The translations under genes and the position numbers were made by a program. Of a stretch of 64,000 nt of DNA, positions 28,386 through 38,474 are shown piece after piece. Location: IMG/VR virus record IMGVR_UViG_3300023296_000994. One strand, given 5' to 3'. The DNA comes from a virus. The notes beneath the pieces were generated by a model. That model was not told where the DNA came from. It did not search any database and saw nothing but the letters and a program-made list of their open reading frames with translations. How positions within the stretch are numbered: the stretch's first letter is position 1; the number at the start of each line of letters is the position of its first letter.

Positions 28386-30407
28386 TTATAATAGCCACTT
28401 CAAGCTTTCTTCGTTTCCGTTCACATTCATATTCAATGAATTATGAGCATTTGCATTGTTGCCGGTGTAAACGCCCGATGGGCCACCTACTTTCTGAAAT
28501 AATCTAAGTGAATTTTTATTGAGTTCTATGCCGTCATTACGAAGTTTAAGTGCATAGTCTCTGATATATAATCCTATTGACCATGCCATTGTTAGGTCAT
28601 CATTATACCCACGTTGAGCTTCACATCTTGATCCTTTCCAAATAAACATGTACCATTCATCAACTAATCGTTGAGATTTGATAATACATGATTTTTCTCT
28701 ACTATACATATCAAGTTTTGATATCAAAAGCGGGCGGGTTTTGCCGGACGTTGTAAATCCTGGCGTCATTTGCGCCTTATCTTTTATATCATATCCTTTT
28801 TCCAATTGTACCGCGGCGTCCGTAACTCCTTCGTGTCTGTACGTGTAATATAAATTATTATATTCTCTGTCGATTGCAGGTTGTATCGCTGCCCAACCAA
28901 TATTTGCATTTTCAATAACCAAAAGCGCATTATTGTATTCGGTGGCCACGTTGACCATCATATTACCGAATTCTTTTGTTCCAATTAGCCCCTTATATTC
29001 AGCTACCTGCTCACACGCTTCAACATCTACTACGTGAAACGCAGAATAATCTGATGCGTCACCCCTTGCAACGTCAGCTACCAACATATAATCGCGTGAG
29101 TAATCGGGGTCTTTCCATACCCACAATTCACCGCCAGGACCTCTTTTTTCTTTTGGTTCGGAAACTTGGTTATCTTCATACCACTTTATTAATTCACCAC
29201 GTATAAGTGTGTTACCAGATGAAATAAAATCACAATTATGAGAAACCACACCATCCACATTAAAGATATTACCATTATCTACTTCAACTATATCATATAA
29301 TTCAATGGATTTATGTATCAATTGTATGTTTACTACGGTTACATATTGTGTATCCGGTACATCGGAATCAATTAGAGATCCTACTTCCAATTTATTTGCT
29401 AATATTTCCGCGCCATTATACATAAATGGATGCGTAGTAGAACATTTTAAAACGATATTATTGGATAATGATATAACGTAATGAGAAGCTTTTTCTAATT
29501 TACGGATACCAGTAAATGGCTGATATCCACTTGGCGTTGATATTTCATACTGTAAGTTCTGTTTAAATATCATATTTGTATTATAAAGTTCCGATAATGT
29601 AATATAAAATTCTTCTTTGGTTTTAGAATCACGTACTTTAATTCGGCTTTCGCCCCACAAACAATCGCATTCTTGAGCTGCCGCTCTTTCACCTAATAAT
29701 TCGTCTTGTTCGTCTCTCCAAGATTGGTCTCTATCTGGGTGTACTGACCAATGGAGTCTAAGTGAATTAAACTGGGCTTTGGTTGAACCCTCTTCTGAGA
29801 ACTTCCATTGCTTATGAAACCAATTACCAGTACCGTTTGGTGTTGATAATGCAATACACCTACCACCAGTAGCCAATGTTTGTTGCGCTGCAATCCAAAT
29901 ATCATCGATATAATCAATGAACGCTGCTTCATCAAAAATAAGAAGCGAAAGCGCTTCCGATCTTCCTGATTGCGGAGTCGATGAAATGGCTTTTATTTGA
30001 GACCCGTTTTTGAATCTAAGCGACAATTTATTATCTGTATCCGTTTGTTCTTTTAACCAAGATGGTAAATAGTCATACATGACACGAACTTTAGTAACCA
30101 TGTTTTTTGCTACATCCCTTGATGTAGCAATTACAAGTACGTTAAAGTCTTCTTTGAATGTCATTTGGTGTAATGCGTATCCAGCAACAAGCGTAGATAT
30201 ACCAAGCTGCCTAGACTTTAATATAATTTCATATCTATGAGATTGAATATCATCTAATGCTTTTTCTTGAAATGGATAAAGATTAAACAGCATTTTGCCC
30301 TGTGTTGGGTGCTGAATATGACAATACTTACGCATAAAGTATATTGGATCAGCTGCACACTTTTTGTACTCCGATGCTATAAGCTGTTTTAAATTAGGAT
30401 TGCTCAT
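28386..30407 (-). CDS. gp17: Terminase large subunit containing a mini-intein
   Basis: LYPFQ, KSRQLGIST, LLIFDEAAF, STPNG, ADVARG..SDYSA, IENAN, NDDLTMA. Confidence 0.95.
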   Translation of the reverse strand: MSNPNLKQLIASEYKKCAADPIYFMRKYCHIQHPTQGKMLFNLYPFQEKALDDIQSHRYEIILKSRQLGISTLVAGYALHQMTFKEDFNVLVIATSRDVAKNMVTKVRVMYDYLPSWLKEQTDTDNKLSLRFKNGSQIKAISSTPQSGRSEALSLLIFDEAAFIDYIDDIWIAAQQTLATGGRCIALSTPNGTGNWFHKQWKFSEEGSTKAQFNSLRLHWSVHPDRDQSWRDEQDELLGERAAAQECDCLWGESRIKVRDSKTKEEFYITLSELYNTNMIFKQNLQYEISTPSGYQPFTGIRKLEKASHYVISLSNNIVLKCSTTHPFMYNGAEILANKLEVGSLIDSDVPDTQYVTVVNIQLIHKSIELYDIVEVDNGNIFNVDGVVSHNCDFISSGNTLIRGELIKWYEDNQVSEPKEKRGPGGELWVWKDPDYSRDYMLVADVARGDASDYSAFHVVDVEACEQVAEYKGLIGTKEFGNMMVNVATEYNNALLVIENANIGWAAIQPAIDREYNNLYYTYRHEGVTDAAVQLEKGYDIKDKAQMTPGFTTSGKTRPLLISKLDMYSREKSCIIKSQRLVDEWYMFIWKGSRCEAQRGYNDDLTMAWSIGLYIRDYALKLRNDGIELNKNSLRLFQKVGGPSGVYTGNNANAHNSLNMNVNGNEESLKWLL
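29235..29663 (-). mobile_element. 143-aa cis mini-intein in the terminase (no endonuclease domain)
   Basis: QECD|CLWGESRIKV...CSTTHPF...LYDIVEV...FNVDGVVSHN|CDFISSG; removal restores QECDCDF. Confidence 0.92.
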
Positions 30408-31025: not shown

Positions 31026-31382
31026 TTAAAACAAATCGTTTGCTATTTTAATAATCATACCTACTATAGCTGCATAAGCTACCCATAGTGCTTTTTGAAC
31101 ACTACCTTTCCATTCCGTTACATGGCCCATTTTACTTGTCAGTGTATCAACGGCTTTAAGCTTTTGTACGGTCGTTTCTATGTTCGATGTATTTTCATTC
31201 ACCTTTACAATTATACCATCATCAGGATTTAGTAATCGCGTTTCTATCCGCTTTACATCAGATGAAAGAGAGGATAACGAGCGTTGAATGGTTGGGAAGT
31301 CATTTGCTTCCCATTCTCCATTTTCTTTTCTATTATTTATATCGTCATATAACGATTGAATCATTTCTTTTTGTGTAGGCAT
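31026..31382 (-). CDS. Hypothetical coiled-coil protein with C-terminal transmembrane helix
   Basis: LLNPDDGIIVKVN; ALWVAYAAIVGMII. Confidence 0.7.
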   Translation of the reverse strand: MPTQKEMIQSLYDDINNRKENGEWEANDFPTIQRSLSSLSSDVKRIETRLLNPDDGIIVKVNENTSNIETTVQKLKAVDTLTSKMGHVTEWKGSVQKALWVAYAAIVGMIIKIANDLF

Positions 31383-31933
31383 TATTCAGTTTCCATGTTT
31401 TTTAGTTTATCTTCAAAGTCCGTTAAATTTGACTGCTTGTTGGCCCATTTTTCAACGTGCCCTGCTTCGGAAATATATGACTTTGCTGACGTATCCAACC
31501 ATTCGGAATACTCATCTTTAATTTCTGATAACCAAAAATCAAGGTTATCTTTTCTAGTTTGATTTACATATTCATCCCACTTGCCGTCAATCTTAAGTTT
31601 AGTATGAAATTTGGATACACAACTACCACACATCTGTAGTACATTCCAATAATACTTAGAAATCTGATCATTCATGGAGCCGGTACACTTAGGACATGAT
31701 ACTGGTCTTTGAATAATACTTCTGGCTTTACTTAATTTAGTAACTGTTTTCTTTATACCATTTTTAATAGTCCACTGCTTTCCTGCCTCGTCCCATACAT
31801 CACCTTCAATTCTTGGTGTGTTCTGCCTAATGGCATTATACCCCGTTTGGATTTTAGTTTTGGTTGTATATTTCCCCATAACGATATTTCTCATACGTTC
31901 TGCTTTGTGGGATGGAACTCCTTTAATTGCCAT
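31382..31933 (-). CDS. Hypothetical zinc-binding protein
   Basis: EGDVW.E.GKQWTIKNGIK, CPKC...CGSC. Confidence 0.75.
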   Translation of the reverse strand: MAIKGVPSHKAERMRNIVMGKYTTKTKIQTGYNAIRQNTPRIEGDVWDEAGKQWTIKNGIKKTVTKLSKARSIIQRPVSCPKCTGSMNDQISKYYWNVLQMCGSCVSKFHTKLKIDGKWDEYVNQTRKDNLDFWLSEIKDEYSEWLDTSAKSYISEAGHVEKWANKQSNLTDFEDKLKNMETE

Positions 31934-31937
31934 AATT

Positions 31938-32477
31938 TTAAACTTTTGGTTTACCGAATACGGTTTCTTTTATTTTTTTACCACCGGTTAATATACGAAT
32001 ATATTTTCTTCTATCACCGGTTAGCTTTAGATCTGATTTCGGAAATAATTTTTGTAGAAATGATTCGTCTTCTATATACGAAACACTTGATTTATATAAT
32101 ACATGTTCTAAGGCATCTGAGGCTTCTACCCAATAACCAGGCTTAGTTAATAACTTTTTAAGTTCAACTAATACTTTATCAATTGCCTTACGAGATCCAT
32201 CATGGCCGATACCTTGTATTTTACTTCCTTTCCACGGTTCACCTGATCTATGATTACGGTAAAATATAGTTGCATCTATATCAGGATCATTATCAATGTC
32301 AATTGAATGCCAGTCCGGTTCAGCCAAATCACGCTTGGTGTTAATAAAAGATACCTTTGGAGTTTTACTATAAGCTGTTTGCACAACTGATATTAAATCA
32401 TCCGAATATTTGTCGGAATCCACTTGCATCCATTTGTTCTTTGGAATTTCGTTTAATATGTCTATTAATTTAATCAA
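31938..32477 (-). CDS. Hypothetical protein with capsid-targeting-like leader MIKLIDILNE
   Basis: Ten-residue leader ending in L-N-E. Confidence 0.7.
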   Translation of the reverse strand: MIKLIDILNEIPKNKWMQVDSDKYSDDLISVVQTAYSKTPKVSFINTKRDLAEPDWHSIDIDNDPDIDATIFYRNHRSGEPWKGSKIQGIGHDGSRKAIDKVLVELKKLLTKPGYWVEASDALEHVLYKSSVSYIEDESFLQKLFPKSDLKLTGDRRKYIRILTGGKKIKETVFGKPKV

Positions 32478-33642
32478 AATTCATTAATCCTGCTATTTGA
32501 TTCACGGGGCCGAAGCTGCCGGTTAATTTATAAGTCTTACCATTGGATACAAATACCAATCCTTCGGATGGAATAATAGTATCAAATCCACCAATTGCTT
32601 TGATTCTAGCCAATTGCGTATCTATTCTTTTAAGTTTCTTTAAATCACCACCCTTTCGAACATCTGTAATTGCTTTGGCAACTTGATTGCGTATATTCTG
32701 TACAGCCTTATCTGGATTAACAGCGAGGAAACTCTCTACGTTTTTAAGTACGTCTACGCCGAGTTCAAAAAACAATACTTCAAATGGAAACATATTTTTC
32801 TTTACTTGATCTGAATGTGACCCTTTATCAAATTCAATTGCTTTCGCAAGAACGGCTTCATCAGGTATATTTTGGCGATTTAACCTAAAACTTTTGTCAA
32901 AGAAGGCCCAGCGATTTACCAATCCTACTTTAATATTATTGTCAAGAGCACCAAATTTAGATTCTATGAAAGCTTCCCACCAAGCTTGATGATATTCAGC
33001 GAGGGTTGACGTATCTAACAATTTAAATTTCTTTCTGAGAGTATCTACTTTAGAAATATAATACGAACTCTTTTCGGCGAAGTCTTTATTTTTAAGAAGC
33101 TTCAGTACATTGGGACCAATGATAGCAAAGTTTTTTTGTAAATTCTTATTTACCTGCTTAATCATACCGGCCAACATACGAGCGCCATCCTTTACTTCGC
33201 CATTAGCTTGGCTACCAGAATACTGTAATACATTGTGGAATTGAAGATATGGTGCATCATATGAAATAACATTTTCAGATGGTGGATAAATGATTTCCAT
33301 GTTTACCCAATTACCACCGTTATCAAATATTTTCTGTCGTTGCTTATCATTTATGGATGATATGGCCGAAGATAAATCTTTCATAGCAAGAGTAAAAGCT
33401 TTTTCTATATTACCACGTCCTGCGAATTTTGCAGCAATTGCTTTATAGTCCATACCACCACGTTTTAAGTCACCGGTATTTCTTGCTGCCATTAACTTAC
33501 CATTAGCCCAAGTAATAAATAAATTTTGACCATCAGTATTATGCACTAAAATACCATTAGCATAATAACACTTGCGGCCTTCAACTTGAATATCATATCT
33601 AGTTTGTAGCTTATTTACTTTCGTGATAGATTTTATTTTCAT
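32470..33642 (-). CDS. C-terminal half of a fractured gene: split intein IntC plus ligase-like nucleotidyltransferase C-extein
   Basis: MKIKSITK...YDIQVEG...YYANGILVHN|TDGQNLFITW; the extein has ARN, EII, and EGLVF....TYKLTG. Confidence 0.88.
   Translation of the reverse strand: MKIKSITKVNKLQTRYDIQVEGRKCYYANGILVHNTDGQNLFITWANGKLMAARNTGDLKRGGMDYKAIAAKFAGRGNIEKAFTLAMKDLSSAISSINDKQRQKIFDNGGNWVNMEIIYPPSENVISYDAPYLQFHNVLQYSGSQANGEVKDGARMLAGMIKQVNKNLQKNFAIIGPNVLKLLKNKDFAEKSSYYISKVDTLRKKFKLLDTSTLAEYHQAWWEAFIESKFGALDNNIKVGLVNRWAFFDKSFRLNRQNIPDEAVLAKAIEFDKGSHSDQVKKNMFPFEVLFFELGVDVLKNVESFLAVNPDKAVQNIRNQVAKAITDVRKGGDLKKLKRIDTQLARIKAIGGFDTIIPSEGLVFVSNGKTYKLTGSFGPVNQIAGLMNFD
33538..33642 (-). mobile_element. 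Split intein C-fragment (35 aa), +1 residue Thr
   Basis: Block F (YDIQV) and block G (LVHN) present; typical basic MKIKSI start. Confidence 0.92.
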
Positions 33643-34465
33643 AATTAATCCGTATAAATTTACAATTCAATTCATTCATTATAATATATTGACGTTGAAT
33701 ATTTTTATCTTTTAATTTACCGTTTCTGAAATGATATTTTTCATCATACTCAAAAACTGTATTAGTTTCTTTACTATACCCATCCACAAAATAGCCACAA
33801 ATTTGAAATTCGCCGCCATTTTCAGCGTGTTGTATATCAGTTATTCCGAGTTCTTTAGCTTTGGCTTCAAGAATCGAAATTGAATTTTTGTTATAACAAT
33901 ATTGTTTACATTTATCCAATGTATTACGATATTTTATATTACTTTCTCTCATTTTCAGTTTGGTAACTGTTGAATGTTTATGTCCTAACGTAGAATGGCC
34001 GTTTTCGTCACGCCAAACTCGAAGTTTTTTCTTTATTTTATCAATAATCACAGGAGCCTTTCTAACATTATCAACACCATATTTAGTTAATACTGTTTTG
34101 TTTTTCGTATGGTATGGTATAGTATTTTTACTTAATGGATTTACTGCCCCATACTTTTCTAAATTAGTAGAGTTTATTCGATCTCTATATAATTTCATAT
34201 TATTAGATTCTTTAACCGATCTAGTTGGGATTTCAAATTTACATAGTGCTTTAATAATTGGGTTTACCCCAATTCCGATTTCTTGTGAAATTTGATTAGC
34301 AGCCTTACCAACATTAACATATTCATTATACAGAAATTCTTTAGTTAAGATTCTATTTTTGTATAATTTATATTGATTACAGCTCTTATAATGATTTGAT
34401 ATTTGTTGTTTATTAATCACACCTATTTTTGCAGAACAATATGTACATTTCCAAAGTTTATTCAT
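33611..34465 (-). mobile_element. Free-standing homing endonuclease (Vsr-like/PD-(D/E)xK type) between the split-intein halves
   Basis: N-terminal CxxC..H...C, KYGxxN repeats, NUMOD3-like GHKHSTVTKLKMRES, C-terminal GYFVDGY......FEYDEKYH...RQ...CKFIRI; own promoter motif at 34472-34480. Confidence 0.8.
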
Positions 34466-34504
34466 ATTATATATAAATATCTAATTTCCGAAAAACGGAT
34501 GGTA

Positions 34505-34801
34505 TCAAATAACAGTTAAATCATCTCCAAGTATTAATTCATCTGCTCGAACAAATCCTCTATTCTTTATATATATTTTATGGTTAGGTGTTACTTGTAT
34601 AATACTATCATCATCAAGTACAATTTCAAGCCATTCATCAGAATCACCGTTATTAAATTTATTAGTTACAGGTCTATACTCAATAGAATCTGTATCCGAG
34701 TCATATGATAATACATCATCTGTTATACCACTGTCAACAAAATCAGAAATCTTCATTCGGCCGTTGTTTTTCAACTGTAATATCGCGTCTGGATATATAC
34801 A
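34505..34801 (-). mobile_element. Split intein N-fragment (98 aa)
   Basis: Block A CIYPDAIL and block B IQVTPNHKIY, ending VRADELILGDDLTVI-stop; acidic. Confidence 0.92.
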
Positions 34802-36817
34802 TTTTTCAGTGGGCATTGTATTCATACTTAAATTACCTTGTAATGATGTAGTTATAATATGCTTCATATCACCGAAGGTTAACTCTTTATCATCAAATGG
34901 GTGCGACATGTGTCCGTATGCTCCGCCACAAGTGAGTAATTGCTTGATATTACGAGATCCCATTGGATGATTGGATGATTCTATATCAACAATCAATTCT
35001 CTTAATGATATTGTTGAATTACCCCCTTTACTTTCATTCAACCTACCACACATCATTTCAAAGTTTGTATAATGAGAGATAATTTCAACTGGAATATTTT
35101 TATTAAAGCCATCATGTATTGATAACTTATGGTCTAAATGAAAATCTCTACTCCGCTTTTTAGCATTCGGTATTTCATTGAAATATGTTTGATAGTTTTC
35201 ATTAGATAAACGTCTAACTTTTTCTTGGTAACGTTCAAATGCTGGCTTATCTTCCAATAAAGTCCAATTTCGAGCTTTAGCTATTTTATCTTGTGTCTTA
35301 CTATTACCAAATCCATATTTCTTACCAGTTATCGAACTCTTTTCTCTCAACGATGGTTCTTTCTCATATGATTTCCGAACACCATCCGATACCTTTTTTT
35401 TGTTTTCAGAAGAATGCATCGAATTATTTTCAGACATTTTTTTCTTAGCTTCATCGCTTGCGATTCTGCCAGTAGAACCAATTCTTTGTTTTTTTCGGTA
35501 TTCATCTGTGGTTACACTTTTTTTATGTGTTTCCCTAACAGTGGAATTAGCCATCGGATTTTTATTACCTGTGTTTTTAACGGAGTCTGCTATAAGTGGT
35601 GCATTTGGGTATTTATCTTTATATTCCACCATAGTCATATCATTATGGCTATATTTTAAATGTCTGTATTGAATTTGTTTCATCATACACCCACACACCA
35701 TACACTGTACTTTTCCCTCATCATCATTGGGAAACTCGACAAGGAGCCCCTCAGATACCAAGTCATCGGTCTGAGTGTTTGGCTCCGAATAATCAGTTGA
35801 CATTTCAGCGCCAAGGTAATCCAAAAATTGCATTCCCACTGATGACGCAATATTTTTTATATATTTTGCCCATTCTGCAAATGCTTCTACAGATTCAAAG
35901 TCGTCCTGGTTAATTGTAGTTGTCTTTCCAGCTACACCTGCGGGGAAAAATGATGGTGATCTAGTTATATGTGAAAATCTAGATGATAAGTTATTAAGTG
36001 ACATATCAGAATCTCCGGTTATGTAATTTATTACTTTCATTCCGAGCTTTTCTGCTACATGATTTGTTGCCGATTTATATGAATTGGTTGTACGATACCA
36101 CATCTGCGGGCCATCATCCACATCACCCAATGATGATAAACTTGATAAACTTGCTTCGGTTATACTATCCGAGAAATCACTATTATTTATAAATTTTTCT
36201 AATAATTCATTTACACGTAATCTACTTGATATCATTTTATGGATAGAATGGTCGTGCCATCCCATAATACTTTTAAATGTTTTTTTAGCTTCGGGTGTAT
36301 TCGGGTCTTGAGCCAAAGCTTGGCGAATTGTAGTACCCGACATTTCACCATAACCAGCAACGTTAAGAGATATATGCGGAGCAATTAATGTATACGCGCC
36401 TTTTCTATATCCTACCGATGCTACTCCCTTCCACGGGGAGAAAAACTTACTGCCAAGCCGTTCCTGATCTTTTTTTCCAACTATAAATACAGCAGCAGTT
36501 GTTTCTGGGTCGTATTTACTTAATAGCTCTGTAGCTTGATATGGATTTTTTACTTGTATAATTTTACGAATACCGTGCTTATTAAATATTTTCTTTTTTT
36601 CGTTAAAATTCATCGGCGACTTCGGCAACTGTACTTTGTCGCTGGTTACTACCCATGCTTCATCAAAAAGGGTTTCTACCCACTTGAATGTTTTAACGTG
36701 ATGTTTACCAGCGGGTTGAAATCGGCCTGGGTATATAGCAACTATAGTCTTTATACCATTTGATTTTCTATCCGCTTCAGATAAAATATTATGTGCTATC
36801 CATTCACCGTAATTCAT
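34505..36817 (-). CDS. N-terminal half of a fractured gene: HIGH-type nucleotidyltransferase-like domain, in-frame HNH module, ligase-like N-extein and split intein IntN
   Basis: IYPGRFQPAGKHH...MSGTTIR; CMVC/NUMOD3/HLDH..N......NESK; GGAYGHMSHPFD...TEK|CIYPD. Confidence 0.85.
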   Translation of the reverse strand: MNYGEWIAHNILSEADRKSNGIKTIVAIYPGRFQPAGKHHVKTFKWVETLFDEAWVVTSDKVQLPKSPMNFNEKKKIFNKHGIRKIIQVKNPYQATELLSKYDPETTAAVFIVGKKDQERLGSKFFSPWKGVASVGYRKGAYTLIAPHISLNVAGYGEMSGTTIRQALAQDPNTPEAKKTFKSIMGWHDHSIHKMISSRLRVNELLEKFINNSDFSDSITEASLSSLSSLGDVDDGPQMWYRTTNSYKSATNHVAEKLGMKVINYITGDSDMSLNNLSSRFSHITRSPSFFPAGVAGKTTTINQDDFESVEAFAEWAKYIKNIASSVGMQFLDYLGAEMSTDYSEPNTQTDDLVSEGLLVEFPNDDEGKVQCMVCGCMMKQIQYRHLKYSHNDMTMVEYKDKYPNAPLIADSVKNTGNKNPMANSTVRETHKKSVTTDEYRKKQRIGSTGRIASDEAKKKMSENNSMHSSENKKKVSDGVRKSYEKEPSLREKSSITGKKYGFGNSKTQDKIAKARNWTLLEDKPAFERYQEKVRRLSNENYQTYFNEIPNAKKRSRDFHLDHKLSIHDGFNKNIPVEIISHYTNFEMMCGRLNESKGGNSTISLRELIVDIESSNHPMGSRNIKQLLTCGGAYGHMSHPFDDKELTFGDMKHIITTSLQGNLSMNTMPTEKCIYPDAILQLKNNGRMKISDFVDSGITDDVLSYDSDTDSIEYRPVTNKFNNGDSDEWLEIVLDDDSIIQVTPNHKIYIKNRGFVRADELILGDDLTVI
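34931..35734 (-). mobile_element. In-frame HNH homing endonuclease-like module (about 268 aa)
   Basis: CMVCG...HLKYSH...EYKDKYP zinc module, GRIASDEAKKKMSE NUMOD3-like, FHLDHKLSI...NFEMM....NESKG. Boundaries approximate. Confidence 0.7.
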
Positions 36818-37560
36818 TTTATATTTAGGCTCTTCAATTTTAATTCATTTTCAATCCATTGTCTACCTATATTATTATCAATTGGTTTATTAACAAATTT
36901 AGTAGTCAATGATATCTTTCTTTTATGTATTTTATTAAAATCACCTATTTCGGTGTTATCAACTATGTACATATATTTACCAAATAAAGTTTGGAACTTT
37001 CCAATATTAGCTTGCGTTTTTTTCCAATAAGCGGCGACCAGGTCATCTTTGATTACGCGTTCGCGCTGTCGGTTTCTTTGTAGTGCTGTCTTTAAATCTG
37101 TATTTACAAAAACCATAGCAGTATCATACCCAATTGATTCCAAGCGACTTTGTTCGTTAGCTATTTTATTATAATCCTTACCCGTACCATCCAATACCAT
37201 GCCCAATCTACCAAGTTCATAAATCTTTTTTAATTTAGTGACGGTTTCCTTTGCTTTGATGCGGGGTGATTCAGGTCGTGTTGTATAGTACTGAAATAAT
37301 TTATCTGTCATTTGTCCTAATTTGGTTGGATCAATGTGTACCTTTTTAAGTAATCGTTCGAACTGTATGTCCGAATTTATTACTTTCAATCCGAGGGTAC
37401 TTGTACCAGACATAATCGTATCAACACCGAATATTTTATCAGCAGCAAATGACTTTCCTGATACTGGACCTCCAGCCATAAAAACAGCCTTTAATACACC
37501 TTTGTCATTAACGCCTTCAAATAAGAAGTTATTCAATACATTTATGTCAGTTACAATCAC
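36814..37560 (-). CDS. P-loop kinase (polynucleotide kinase/zeta toxin-like fold)
   Basis: AVFMAGGPVSGKS Walker A, INSD, MVLDGTG, lid ALQRNRQRER; promoter motif at 37588-37596. Confidence 0.85.
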   Translation of the reverse strand: MIVTDINVLNNFLFEGVNDKGVLKAVFMAGGPVSGKSFAADKIFGVDTIMSGTSTLGLKVINSDIQFERLLKKVHIDPTKLGQMTDKLFQYYTTRPESPRIKAKETVTKLKKIYELGRLGMVLDGTGKDYNKIANEQSRLESIGYDTAMVFVNTDLKTALQRNRQRERVIKDDLVAAYWKKTQANIGKFQTLFGKYMYIVDNTEIGDFNKIHKRKISLTTKFVNKPIDNNIGRQWIENELKLKSLNIK

Positions 37561-37604
37561 TTATCAATACTCCCGTTTAACTTTGTATATAAATATCAAA
37601 AAAA

Positions 37605-38474
37605 TTAAATAACATATTCTAGTAAGATAGTTCCCCTATTCGACCCGGTTGCGTCAAAATCGGTACTATCAAACGTTCCAGATGCTTTCCGGAAAATAGT
37701 TACATTTGTAGCATCATATGACACTACAGAAGCTTCAATATTACCATTAGATGTATTCAGATATGGGAGACAATACCCAATTGTTTGTACATCATTAATT
37801 ATGGACGCATTTGCTGTACGGATACTTGTCACTGCATTACCCAGACCATGTGGGATTGTTACACTTTGCGTCGCGTCCATGTCCCAAATACCAATCGGAA
37901 TTTCTTTTGATGATATACCATTAATATCAAGTGATCCAGTTATACTTACTGACCCGCTGATTTGGTGAATATCAGATATATCATTACCCAATTTAGTATT
38001 TGCCCTGAGCTGGACATTGCCCTTAAATGCGGAAGTTGACAACGGGTCCGATGCAAGAAACGCTGATGCTGATACGAATGAATCGGCAGAGCTACTTGCG
38101 TTTGTTACTTGAAGACCGTTATTATTAAATGATAATCGTACGCCGTTTTGGCCGCCATCAGGATTTTCCCTATCATCAGTAAATAGAATATCAAATGTGC
38201 CACCCGCGTACATCGTAAGAGGATATGTATCGCTGGGAACCGTTCCTATACCAATATGACCGGATGAACTCATAACTAGCATCGGTGCCATTTCTCTATT
38301 ACTTCCACTTATTGTATAAAATGAAACACTATCTGGTTCGGAACCATATAACATCATGACCGCGCTTGAGGTCTGGGGTACACCTGGCTTACCTGATTCG
38401 GTTTCATACGTAGTACTTCCATTACTACCGCTCGGTATGAAAAACATTTTATCGTCTGTAAATCTAATTGGCAT
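37605..38474 (-). CDS. Putative virion/fibre protein
   Basis: SSGHIGIGT, TKLGNDISDIHQISGSVSITGSL repeats. Confidence 0.6.
   Translation of the reverse strand: MPIRFTDDKMFFIPSGSNGSTTYETESGKPGVPQTSSAVMMLYGSEPDSVSFYTISGSNREMAPMLVMSSSGHIGIGTVPSDTYPLTMYAGGTFDILFTDDRENPDGGQNGVRLSFNNNGLQVTNASSSADSFVSASAFLASDPLSTSAFKGNVQLRANTKLGNDISDIHQISGSVSITGSLDINGISSKEIPIGIWDMDATQSVTIPHGLGNAVTSIRTANASIINDVQTIGYCLPYLNTSNGNIEASVVSYDATNVTIFRKASGTFDSTDFDATGSNRGTILLEYVI

Follow-up and report, generated by a model that had tools for sequence, protein, structure and literature searches.

A split intein within the EKxDG motif of an RNA-ligase-like phage protein: a probable fractured gene

How does a phage enzyme come to be encoded as two halves with an endonuclease gene between them, and with the break inside a motif that resembles an active site? 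The question is raised by positions 32470-36817 of a stretch of DNA from the IMG/VR virus record IMGVR_UViG_3300023296_000994; the whole stretch analysed, 64,000 nucleotides (nt), is called the window here. Three open reading frames (ORFs) on one strand make up the locus. The first encodes the N-terminal part of a host protein, the N-extein, followed by an N-terminal intein fragment (IntN). The second encodes an endonuclease, and the third a C-terminal intein fragment (IntC) followed by the remainder of the host protein, the C-extein. We consider this most probably a fractured gene of an RNA-ligase-like phage enzyme, the two products of which are trans-spliced into a nucleotidyltransferase for nucleic-acid ends. 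The reading builds on the anatomy of the locus, on contiguous and allelic homologues, on folds and on a predicted complex of IntN and IntC; from these we infer splicing, adenylylation, the substrate and endonuclease activity. The parts of the locus, and the gene directly upstream, are as follows (aa, amino acids).

34505-36817, minus strand: 770-aa ORF, the N half, consisting of the N-extein and a C-terminal 98-aa IntN (CIYPD...TPNH...LTVI, then stop).
34802-36817, minus strand: N-extein, 672 aa, with the terminus ...MPTEK; Lys672 (34802-34804) is the Lys of EKxDG.
36158-36817, minus strand: putative NadM/PPAT-like adenylyltransferase domain of the HIGH superfamily, about aa 1-220 (GRFQPAGKHH ... 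SGTTIR).
34928-35734, minus strand: in-frame insert of 269 codons, aa 362-630 of the N-extein, directly preceding GGAYGHMSHPFDD.
34802-34927, minus strand: the portion of the ligase-like domain that the N half encodes, its first 42 residues (GGAYGHMSHPFDD...TEK), aligning with about residues 11-52 of the stand-alone homologue P0056.
34508-34801, minus strand: IntN, 98 aa, with Cys1 and block B (TPNH); stop codon 34505-34507.
34466-34504, minus strand: non-coding spacer of 39 nt, from the IntN stop to the endonuclease start.
33611-34465, minus strand: free-standing homing-endonuclease gene, 284 aa; nuclease domain aa 187-284 at 33614-33907.
32470-33642, minus strand: 390-aa ORF, the C half, consisting of IntC and the C-extein.
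33538-33642, minus strand: IntC, 35 aa (MKIKSI...YDIQV...LVHN), the start of which overlaps the endonuclease 3' end by 32 nt.
32473-33537, minus strand: C-extein, 355 aa, the rest of the RNA-ligase-like nucleotidyltransferase domain, with Thr+1 followed by DGQN, ARN (aa 18-20), NMEIIYP (79-85), LQFHN (98-102), a helical insert, SEGLVF (324-329) and YKLTG (336-340); stop codon 32470-32472.
36814-37560, minus strand: upstream P-loop kinase gene, 248 aa, the stop codon of which abuts the start codon of the N-half gene.

The original prediction for this locus had been made from the letters of the window. The three ORFs lie where it had placed them, and the EGLV and downstream Lys that it had pointed to in the C-extein are those of SEGLVF and YKLTG. 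The predicted spliced product would read ...MPTEK followed by TDGQN... and be 1027 aa long (672 + 355).

The model PF14890 (155 positions) is matched by the two intein fragments in complementary pieces, IntN covering positions 3-93 (24.5 bits) and IntC positions 122-155 (22.6 bits). Each of them alone is below the cut-off of 35.8 bits; a contiguous allele, P0096, scores 42 bits and is above it. IntN and IntC align to the two ends of the P0096 mini-intein, and the break between them is at the usual position of a nested endonuclease. The closest solved intein to IntN is the NrdJ-1 split intein (Protein Data Bank (PDB) entry 8ubs, E 3.6e-10). The window intein has in common with NrdJ-1 (8ubs, 9omb) the sequence TP(D/N)H-x-(V/I)Y-x-KNRG(Y/F)VRADEL, its membership of class 1, Cys1, and a similar split point and similar fragment lengths. 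It differs in host and insertion site, in IntN (98 aa here) and in the +1 residue, which is Thr here and which we take to be Ser in NrdJ-1.

The residues that splicing would depend on are conserved. Cys1 corresponds to Cys673 of the 770-aa ORF (...TEK/CIYPD, the slash marking the junction) and is Cys in six out of six aligned IntN alleles. Block B is TPNH in the window, and TPNH or TGNH across all aligned IntN alleles. IntC terminates in LVHN/T in the window, and HN/T is present in 15 out of 15 IntC alleles. Furthermore, the +1 residue is Thr in all 14 tallied intein-bearing homologues and in the window copy, whereas of 138 intein-free alleles 56 have a non-nucleophilic residue (L, V, I, Y or F) at the equivalent position, which argues that the +1 nucleophile is used. 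To judge from these matches and residues, IntN and IntC are a class 1 (HINT) naturally split intein. This is what had been predicted; the complementary pieces of PF14890, the NrdJ-1 match and the identical split residue in independent metagenome contigs all agree with it, and the predicted Thr nucleophile is seen as HN/T in the window and in every allele.

A complex of IntN and IntC, each with ten extein residues, was predicted with a score of 0.63, compared to 0.01 for the best control. That score was reached by 51 of 78 solved complexes and by 2 of 108 mismatched pairs. At least 93% of the contacts were common between runs, and the predicted local distance difference test score (pLDDT) of the partner was at least 69. 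As solved split-intein complexes exist, this result may only mirror likeness to them. In the prediction the two fragments look like a working pair, and this speaks to association, not to splicing.

Five states were found at this one site. The great majority of the host genes are intein-free. P0096 has a contiguous mini-intein of 139 aa at exactly the same site (EK/CIDGD...LVHN/TDGQN). A split intein together with an endonuclease is found in the window and in loci L004, L009 and L010, and a split intein without endonuclease in L005 and L006, where the halves overlap by 14 nt. The fifth state, L008, is intein-free with an endonuclease gene downstream. The gene order of L009 (kinase, N half, endonuclease, C half) is that of the window, and L004 encodes a 136-aa version of the same nuclease. 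A word-limited search revealed 12 further clusters of IntC-extein half-genes with the same start. Between the window and L009 all frames are open, and the identity is 74% for both exteins, 69% for IntC, 57% for the endonuclease and 53% for IntN; the exteins evolve slowest.

The intein also appears to have moved recently. In a FastTree phylogeny of 153 C-exteins the 15 intein bearers are scattered, and parsimony gives 13 changes, at least 11 of them forced by well-supported branches. In three pairs (P0283/P0079, P0285/P0055 and P0277/P0018) the C-extein of an intein-bearing half-gene is 99.4, 97.5 or 96.0% identical to that of an intein-free full gene. Identities of up to 99.4% imply that the split intein was gained or lost very recently in natural populations. 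It is a presence/absence polymorphism in nearly identical phage genes.

The uninterrupted form of the host protein is widespread. A search with the C-extein gave 1556 representative clusters at E ≤ 1e-3, viral homologues without functional annotation in which the motif typically reads EK(T/L/V)DGQ, and in the best 150 of these the match nearly always starts directly after a contiguous EK. Of 138 intein-free junctions, 82 have T directly after EK, 46 have L and the other 10 have V, I, Y or F. Nearly all of the homologues listed that reach the junction have EKxDG, the exceptions being MKYDG (two), IKLDG (one) and VKIDG (one). An annotated contiguous example is the 639-aa 'cytidylyltransferase like protein' of Microcystis phage Mel-JY01 (TEKLDG), and two uncultured huge phages have the contiguous junctions SEKLDG (LR756500) and REKTDG (LR756508). 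Longer homologues number more than 2646. The 120 listed are 623-814 aa long and 66-73% identical, with several from Tara, and none of these 120 carries a functional name. Intein-free homologues with a contiguous EKxDG had been suggested as a check on the original prediction, and they were found in Mel-JY01, in LR756500 and LR756508 and at the 138 junctions. The cut inside KxDG, as first described, falls between the K and the x of EKxDG. Since inteins tend to sit in essential active-site motifs, the place of the insertion suggests that EKxDG is the functional centre of the host family.

Fractured genes were described by Dassa, London, Stoddard and Pietrokovski in 2009 (NAR, PMC2677866), with a spacer of 27-51 nt after IntN. 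The enzymes named there as hosts are gp41, IMPDH, DnaE, NrdA, NrdJ, terminase and a Felix-01-like DNA ligase, and to these comes one protein of unknown function (PMC2677866). NrdJ-1 itself counts among the original fractured-gene inteins. The window locus has the same layout, i.e. the host N-terminal part with IntN, a short spacer (39 nt here), a free-standing Vsr-like endonuclease and IntC with the host C-terminal part, all on one strand. The predicted fractured-gene layout is consequently well founded, as three minus-strand ORFs, the 39-nt spacer, a Vsr-like middle gene and uninterrupted homologues all exist. The endonuclease-free allele of L005 resembles gp41-7 of the 2009 study, and the stages of gene breaking (mini-intein, invaded intein, endonuclease lost) are all present at this one site. 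Unlike in the 2009 cases, the end of the window endonuclease gene overlaps the IntC start by 32 nt. The host is also outside the 2009 list when compared by name, the unknown-function locus 'upstream of nrdB' set aside. S-PM2p143, which is directly upstream of an ORF annotated as NrdB, has no similarity to the host family, and the S-PM2 cytidyltransferase gives a weak match restricted to the HIGH-motif region.

We found, in the literature searched, no report that this host family or this site carries an intein, intein registries and the 2009 supplements being outside that search. The layout was already described in 2009, and the intein groups with NrdJ-1 and the endonuclease with the EDxHD family; what is new, within the literature searched, is the host protein and the site. 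The original suggestion that both may be new holds in so far as no contradicting paper was found, but many unannotated alleles were already present in public metagenomes.

The gene between the halves encodes an N-terminal part with a CxxC...HxxxC zinc ribbon, a helix-turn-helix and NUMOD-like helices. It has 202 homologues, many of them with NUMOD3 or DUF7487, and their common C-terminal core reads QHAENGGE...GYFVDGY...EYDExxH...D..RQ...C.F.R. One homologue, P0175, matches DUF559 at 22.5 bits, above the cut-off. The model of the window protein (pLDDT 84.7) has a PD-(D/E)xK domain at residues 187-284. The homing endonuclease I-Bth0305I (3r3p) matches this model with a Foldseek probability of 1.00 (TMt 0.52, E 2.6e-2) and Z 6.2. 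Vsr (1cw0; Z 6.4, root-mean-square deviation (rmsd) 3.8, 85 residues aligned) and the DUF559 protein 3hrl (Z 5.7) are found among many PD-(D/E)xK folds. A profile of the endonuclease searched against PDB sequences gave no relevant match, 3r3p included, and the family assignment is therefore taken from the fold. The C-terminal Vsr-type fold, together with DUF559 in a homologue, fits the Vsr-like endonuclease that had been predicted between the halves.

The composite motif of I-Bth0305I consists of E170, D196, H213 and D222 (PMC3239194). The window endonuclease resembles the I-Bth0305I/EDxHD type (PMC3239194) in having an N-terminal DNA-binding part with helix-turn-helix and NUMOD-like elements and a C-terminal Vsr-like nuclease domain, and in the spacing of E200, D228, H245 and position 255; E200, D228 and H245 are kept. 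It differs in having Asn at the last position, in being encoded inside an intein and not an intron, and in its N-terminal zinc ribbon. A homologue 51% identical to it is found free-standing in L008 (L008:2514-3353), directly after an intein-free contiguous host gene (EKTDGQA; end L008:2455). This arrangement implies that the nuclease family is tied to the host gene even without an intein.

What, then, does the fractured gene encode? A model of the stand-alone homologue P0056 (419 aa) was made with AlphaFold2 from a 38-sequence alignment (pLDDT 92.2, predicted template-modelling score 0.88). In a wide VIA-align search with this model the first 11 rows have the ligase nucleotidyltransferase fold (Z 7.0-8.8, 183-209 residues aligned). 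Ten of these are RNA or tRNA ligases and one is a putative DNA ligase (3qwu), with DNA ligases next. The top match is the Naegleria RNA ligase NgrRnl (5cot; Z 8.8, rmsd 4.0, 186 aligned), and other Z values are 8.4 for Trl1, 8.3 for REL1, 7.8 for T4 Rnl1, 7.7 for T4 Rnl2 and 7.0-7.3 for archaeal Rnl3. Searching the PDB with Foldseek gave weak top rows, all of them RNA ligases (best E 2.9e-3, probability up to 0.96). Among the viral models of BFVD the first annotated matches outside the host family are likewise RNA ligases.

Conservation within the family is concentrated in a few blocks. Invariant in the 38 sequences are K52, D54, G55, R71, E136 and G389 (P0056 numbering), and nearly invariant are E51, F155, H156, E388 and K400. 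The conserved blocks are E51-K52-x-D54-G55-Q56, A70-R71-N72, E136, F155-H156, E388-G389-x-V391-F392 and K400-L-T402-G403. They supply candidate motifs in the canonical order, namely EKxDG (I), ARN (Ia), E-IIYP (III), FH (IIIa), EGxVF (IV) and K-L-T-G (V), an assignment that uses order and conservation, not a structural alignment of residues. Between motifs IIIa and IV there is a helical module of about 170 aa (residues 209-383 of the P0056 model).

The ATP-dependent RNA ligases (Rnl1 with T4 and Trl1, Rnl2 with T4 and REL1, Rnl3 with Pab1020, Rnl5 with NgrRnl) share with the host family the fold, the motif I sequence EKxDGxN and the order of the candidate motifs. The host family differs from them in lacking significant sequence similarity, in the helical module, in its K-x-T motif V, in a conserved N-terminal GGxxGHMxHPFDD and in the NadM-like fusion. 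Pfam, NCBIfam and PHROGs gave no family match for the C-extein or P0056. PF09414 (RNA_ligase) is weakly matched in 2 of 38 relatives (best E 1.1e-3) and has no match in the window halves. A loose link to DUF6267 exists as a minority label of ESM Atlas clusters, and the literature search found no papers mentioning DUF6267. Modelled in this way, the C-terminal domain appears to be an RNA-ligase-fold covalent nucleotidyltransferase of an undescribed clade. The ligase-like identity given in the original prediction thus stands on middling fold matches (Z 7-8.8) and motif order, but significant sequence matches did not bear it out.

The N-terminal 220 residues probably constitute an adenylyltransferase of the HIGH superfamily, closest in sequence to NadM-type NMNAT and PPAT. 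PF01467 scores 18.4 bits in the window copy, under the 21-bit cut-off, and is above the cut-off in the relatives P0013 and P0096. Profile matches include the Francisella NadM-Nudix NMNAT (2qjt, E 2.8e-7), PPAT (3k9w, E 9.6e-7) and the NMNAT MJ0541 (E 1.3e-6); the entries 1f9a and 2qjo are among those matched. Invariant columns are G31, R32, F33, Q34, P35, H40, S160 and R165. The signatures GRFQP...H and S-x4-R are shared with NadM-type NMNAT and PPAT. In contrast to these, the first His of HxGH is Gly or variable here and the domain is always linked to the ligase-like domain. This linkage takes different forms. In LR756500 (L002) the ligase-like domain stands alone (421 aa, L002:3818-5083) and the next gene (653 aa, L002:5115-7076) has the NadM-like adenylyltransferase at its C terminus, and in L004 the adenylyltransferase is a separate gene of 204 aa. 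From these separate genes it follows that the domains are linked yet shuffled across phages. The split-intein allele P0137 (L005:2273-4279) has an extra C-terminal extension of 277 aa (residues about 392-668) past the ligase-like domain, with no Pfam match.

The upstream P-loop kinase matches PF13671 (AAA_33) at 24.1 bits and Zeta_toxin at 21.2 bits, each just below the cut-off, and has a weak match to a PHROG polynucleotide kinase. In the homologue P0012 the same kinase is fused ahead of the adenylyltransferase and ligase-like domains.

The 269-codon insert of the N-extein contains a Ros/MucR-like zinc finger, basic repeats and an HNH-like DH...N...N motif. It is present in P0096, L009 and L010 and absent from P0005, the closest intein-free homologue. 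It matches phrog_5104, a group of unknown function, with E 6.5e-9, and ROS_MUCR scores 24.9 bits in P0096. Pfam and PDB searches with the insert gave no HNH family and only a weak alignment to a Ros zinc finger (E 0.48). The insert is in frame and has no stop, intein ends or Rfam intron. From its sequence it looks like an endonuclease-like domain that is kept in the mature protein, 'HNH' being said from the motif only. A group I intron was considered as a cause of the split or of the insert and rejected, as Rfam over 31500-38000 gave only a chance snoRNA match (E 0.49). A scan for promoters and terminators gave sites no more numerous than in shuffled sequences.

Taken together, we propose the following course of events. 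The host gene encodes a multidomain enzyme, in which the NadM/PPAT-like adenylyltransferase is followed by a middle domain and then, at the C terminus, by the presumed covalent nucleotidyltransferase with its RNA-ligase fold. A NrdJ-1-related class 1 mini-intein would have inserted between the Lys of motif I (-1) and Thr (+1). A free-standing Vsr-like (EDxHD) endonuclease gene would then have landed in the intein, between blocks B and F, and following the model of Dassa et al. 2009 this landing would have split both the intein and the host gene; the endonuclease may once have driven the spread of the element. The half-proteins would be translated separately, and IntN and IntC would associate and trans-splice, giving a protein of 1027 aa with a restored EK-TDG active site. 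Neither half holds the whole nucleotidyltransferase domain, and neither is expected to be active alone, because one chain supplies the Lys of motif I and the other chain supplies DG and motifs Ia-V. The lysyl-nucleoside monophosphate intermediate would form first on Lys672, the nucleotidyl acceptor at residue -1. The product and the upstream P-loop kinase would most likely act on nucleic-acid ends, in RNA repair or end sealing. T4 Pnkp/Rnl1 and fungal Trl1 are RNA repair systems with a kinase and a ligase, and by analogy with these an RNA end-healing or end-sealing role is our best guess.

Several observations weigh against this reading. A phmmer search with the C-extein gave no ligase match, so that the ligase call is without significant sequence support, and the family profile found no ligase among PDB sequences. 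Aligned by hhalign with T4 Rnl2 the probability was 3.7%, though EKVDG was aligned with EKIHG. Z values of 7-8.8 are in the range that the tool calls middling, and the fold model is that of P0056, which is 45% identical to the C-extein, and not of the window protein itself. Motif V is K-L-T with a single Lys, compared to K-x-K in characterised RNA ligases. In the adenylyltransferase domain the first His of HxGH is Gly in the window (GRFQPAGKHH) and Gly or variable across the lineage. Residue 255 of the endonuclease (33701-33703, minus strand), the last EDxHD position, is Asn in the window and Asp in 20 of 20 aligned homologues. Going by this residue, the window endonuclease may be weakened or inactive, as expected late in a homing cycle; this has no bearing on splicing.

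Could the protein have the ligase fold and the lysyl-nucleotide chemistry and still be no polynucleotide ligase? It might then be a capping-type guanylyltransferase, nucleotidylate proteins or small molecules, or use a dinucleotide, which would come from the fused NadM-like domain. The split-intein part of the proposal would be unaffected. The single Lys of motif V (K-L-T-G) would fit such an enzyme, as would the missing sequence match to any ligase family and the constant fusion to an NMNAT/PPAT-like adenylyltransferase of the HIGH type, the relatives of which act on small molecules. A further point of fit is the helical module (about 170 aa) that separates motifs IIIa and IV and that, on our own reading and not at residue level, has no counterpart in characterised ligases. 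However, the top structural neighbours are all RNA ligases, with DNA ligases next, and a P-loop kinase of polynucleotide-kinase/zeta type is encoded alongside or in fusion, which recalls known RNA repair systems. We regard a non-ligase enzyme of this kind as rather unlikely, though worth keeping in view.

It is quite improbable, in our opinion, that the halves stay unspliced, with the intein fragments serving as an association module and the enzyme working as a non-covalent heterodimer. There is a precedent in the fragmented NrdA of phage Aeh1, which is reported to assemble without splicing (PMC3045599), and the predicted complex of IntN and IntC bears on association and not on chemistry. On the other hand, none of the alleles, for all their large divergence, has lost Cys1, TxNH, the terminal HN or Thr+1. 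Thr+1 is found in all 14 bearers and the window, compared to non-nucleophilic residues in 56 of 138 intein-free alleles, a difference to be foreseen only with the +1 nucleophile in use. Without splicing, moreover, motif I would stay interrupted by the intein, with Lys on one side and DG on the other.

That a selfish endonuclease broke the gene, and that it is now decaying and yields no functional product, is hardly credible, since Asn255 at a nearly invariant Asp of the endonuclease, the 269-codon in-frame insert and the lost first His of HxGH are set against three frames that are open at full length, an L009 locus of the same architecture whose exteins (74% identical) have diverged more slowly than the intein or endonuclease parts, a window copy with all the candidate catalytic motifs of the ligase-like domain, and at least 12 further intact clusters of IntC-extein half-genes.

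The fractured gene of an RNA-ligase-like enzyme is thus the reading that we retain. Judged by its sequence the window belongs to a large phage whose relatives include Microcystis phage Mel-JY01 and the Flavobacterium 'immuto' phages, with a large terminase 52-56% identical to theirs. The large terminase gene (28386-30407, minus strand) has a contiguous mini-intein of its own, 143 aa at 29235-29663 (...QECD/CLWGES...VVSHN/CDFISS). In alignments, the terminases of Mel-JY01 and of the Flavobacterium phages match on either side of this mini-intein, in two pieces, and are therefore without it. In the window, as in L001 and L005, a few genes separate the host-gene block from the terminase that follows. 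By eye, a small protein with two pairs of Cys-x2-Cys (a zinc-ribbon pattern) is encoded in the window (31382-31933, minus strand), in L003 (L003:5294-5938) and in L008 (L008:3396-3923). In L003 and L008 its gene comes directly after the host gene, and in the window another gene intervenes.

For the biology of inteins, one site in one gene family presents every stage, and the 2009 gene-breaking model and ongoing homing can be tested there on natural material. In protein engineering, the locus enlarges the set of NrdJ-1-related split inteins by members whose +1 residue is Thr and whose -1 residue is Lys. The usefulness of Thr+1 that the original prediction put forward is real in that the Thr is present, but Cys1 is retained, the intein is not cysteine-less and the value is modest.

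For phage biology, the locus draws attention to a very large unannotated family in which an RNA-ligase-like fold occurs together with a NadM-like adenylyltransferase and a kinase. We suggest tentatively, as an idea that may well not hold in full, that the host protein founds an unrecognised, phage-specific clade of RNA-ligase-like enzymes (more than 1500 clusters), the activity of which depends strictly on trans-splicing in some phages. The hallmarks of such a clade would be the helical module between motifs IIIa and IV, the K-x-T motif V and the constant link to a NadM-like adenylyltransferase and a P-loop kinase. If this is true, a single gene family would hold both a new pathway for joining or modifying nucleic-acid ends and every stage of split-intein evolution in living alleles.

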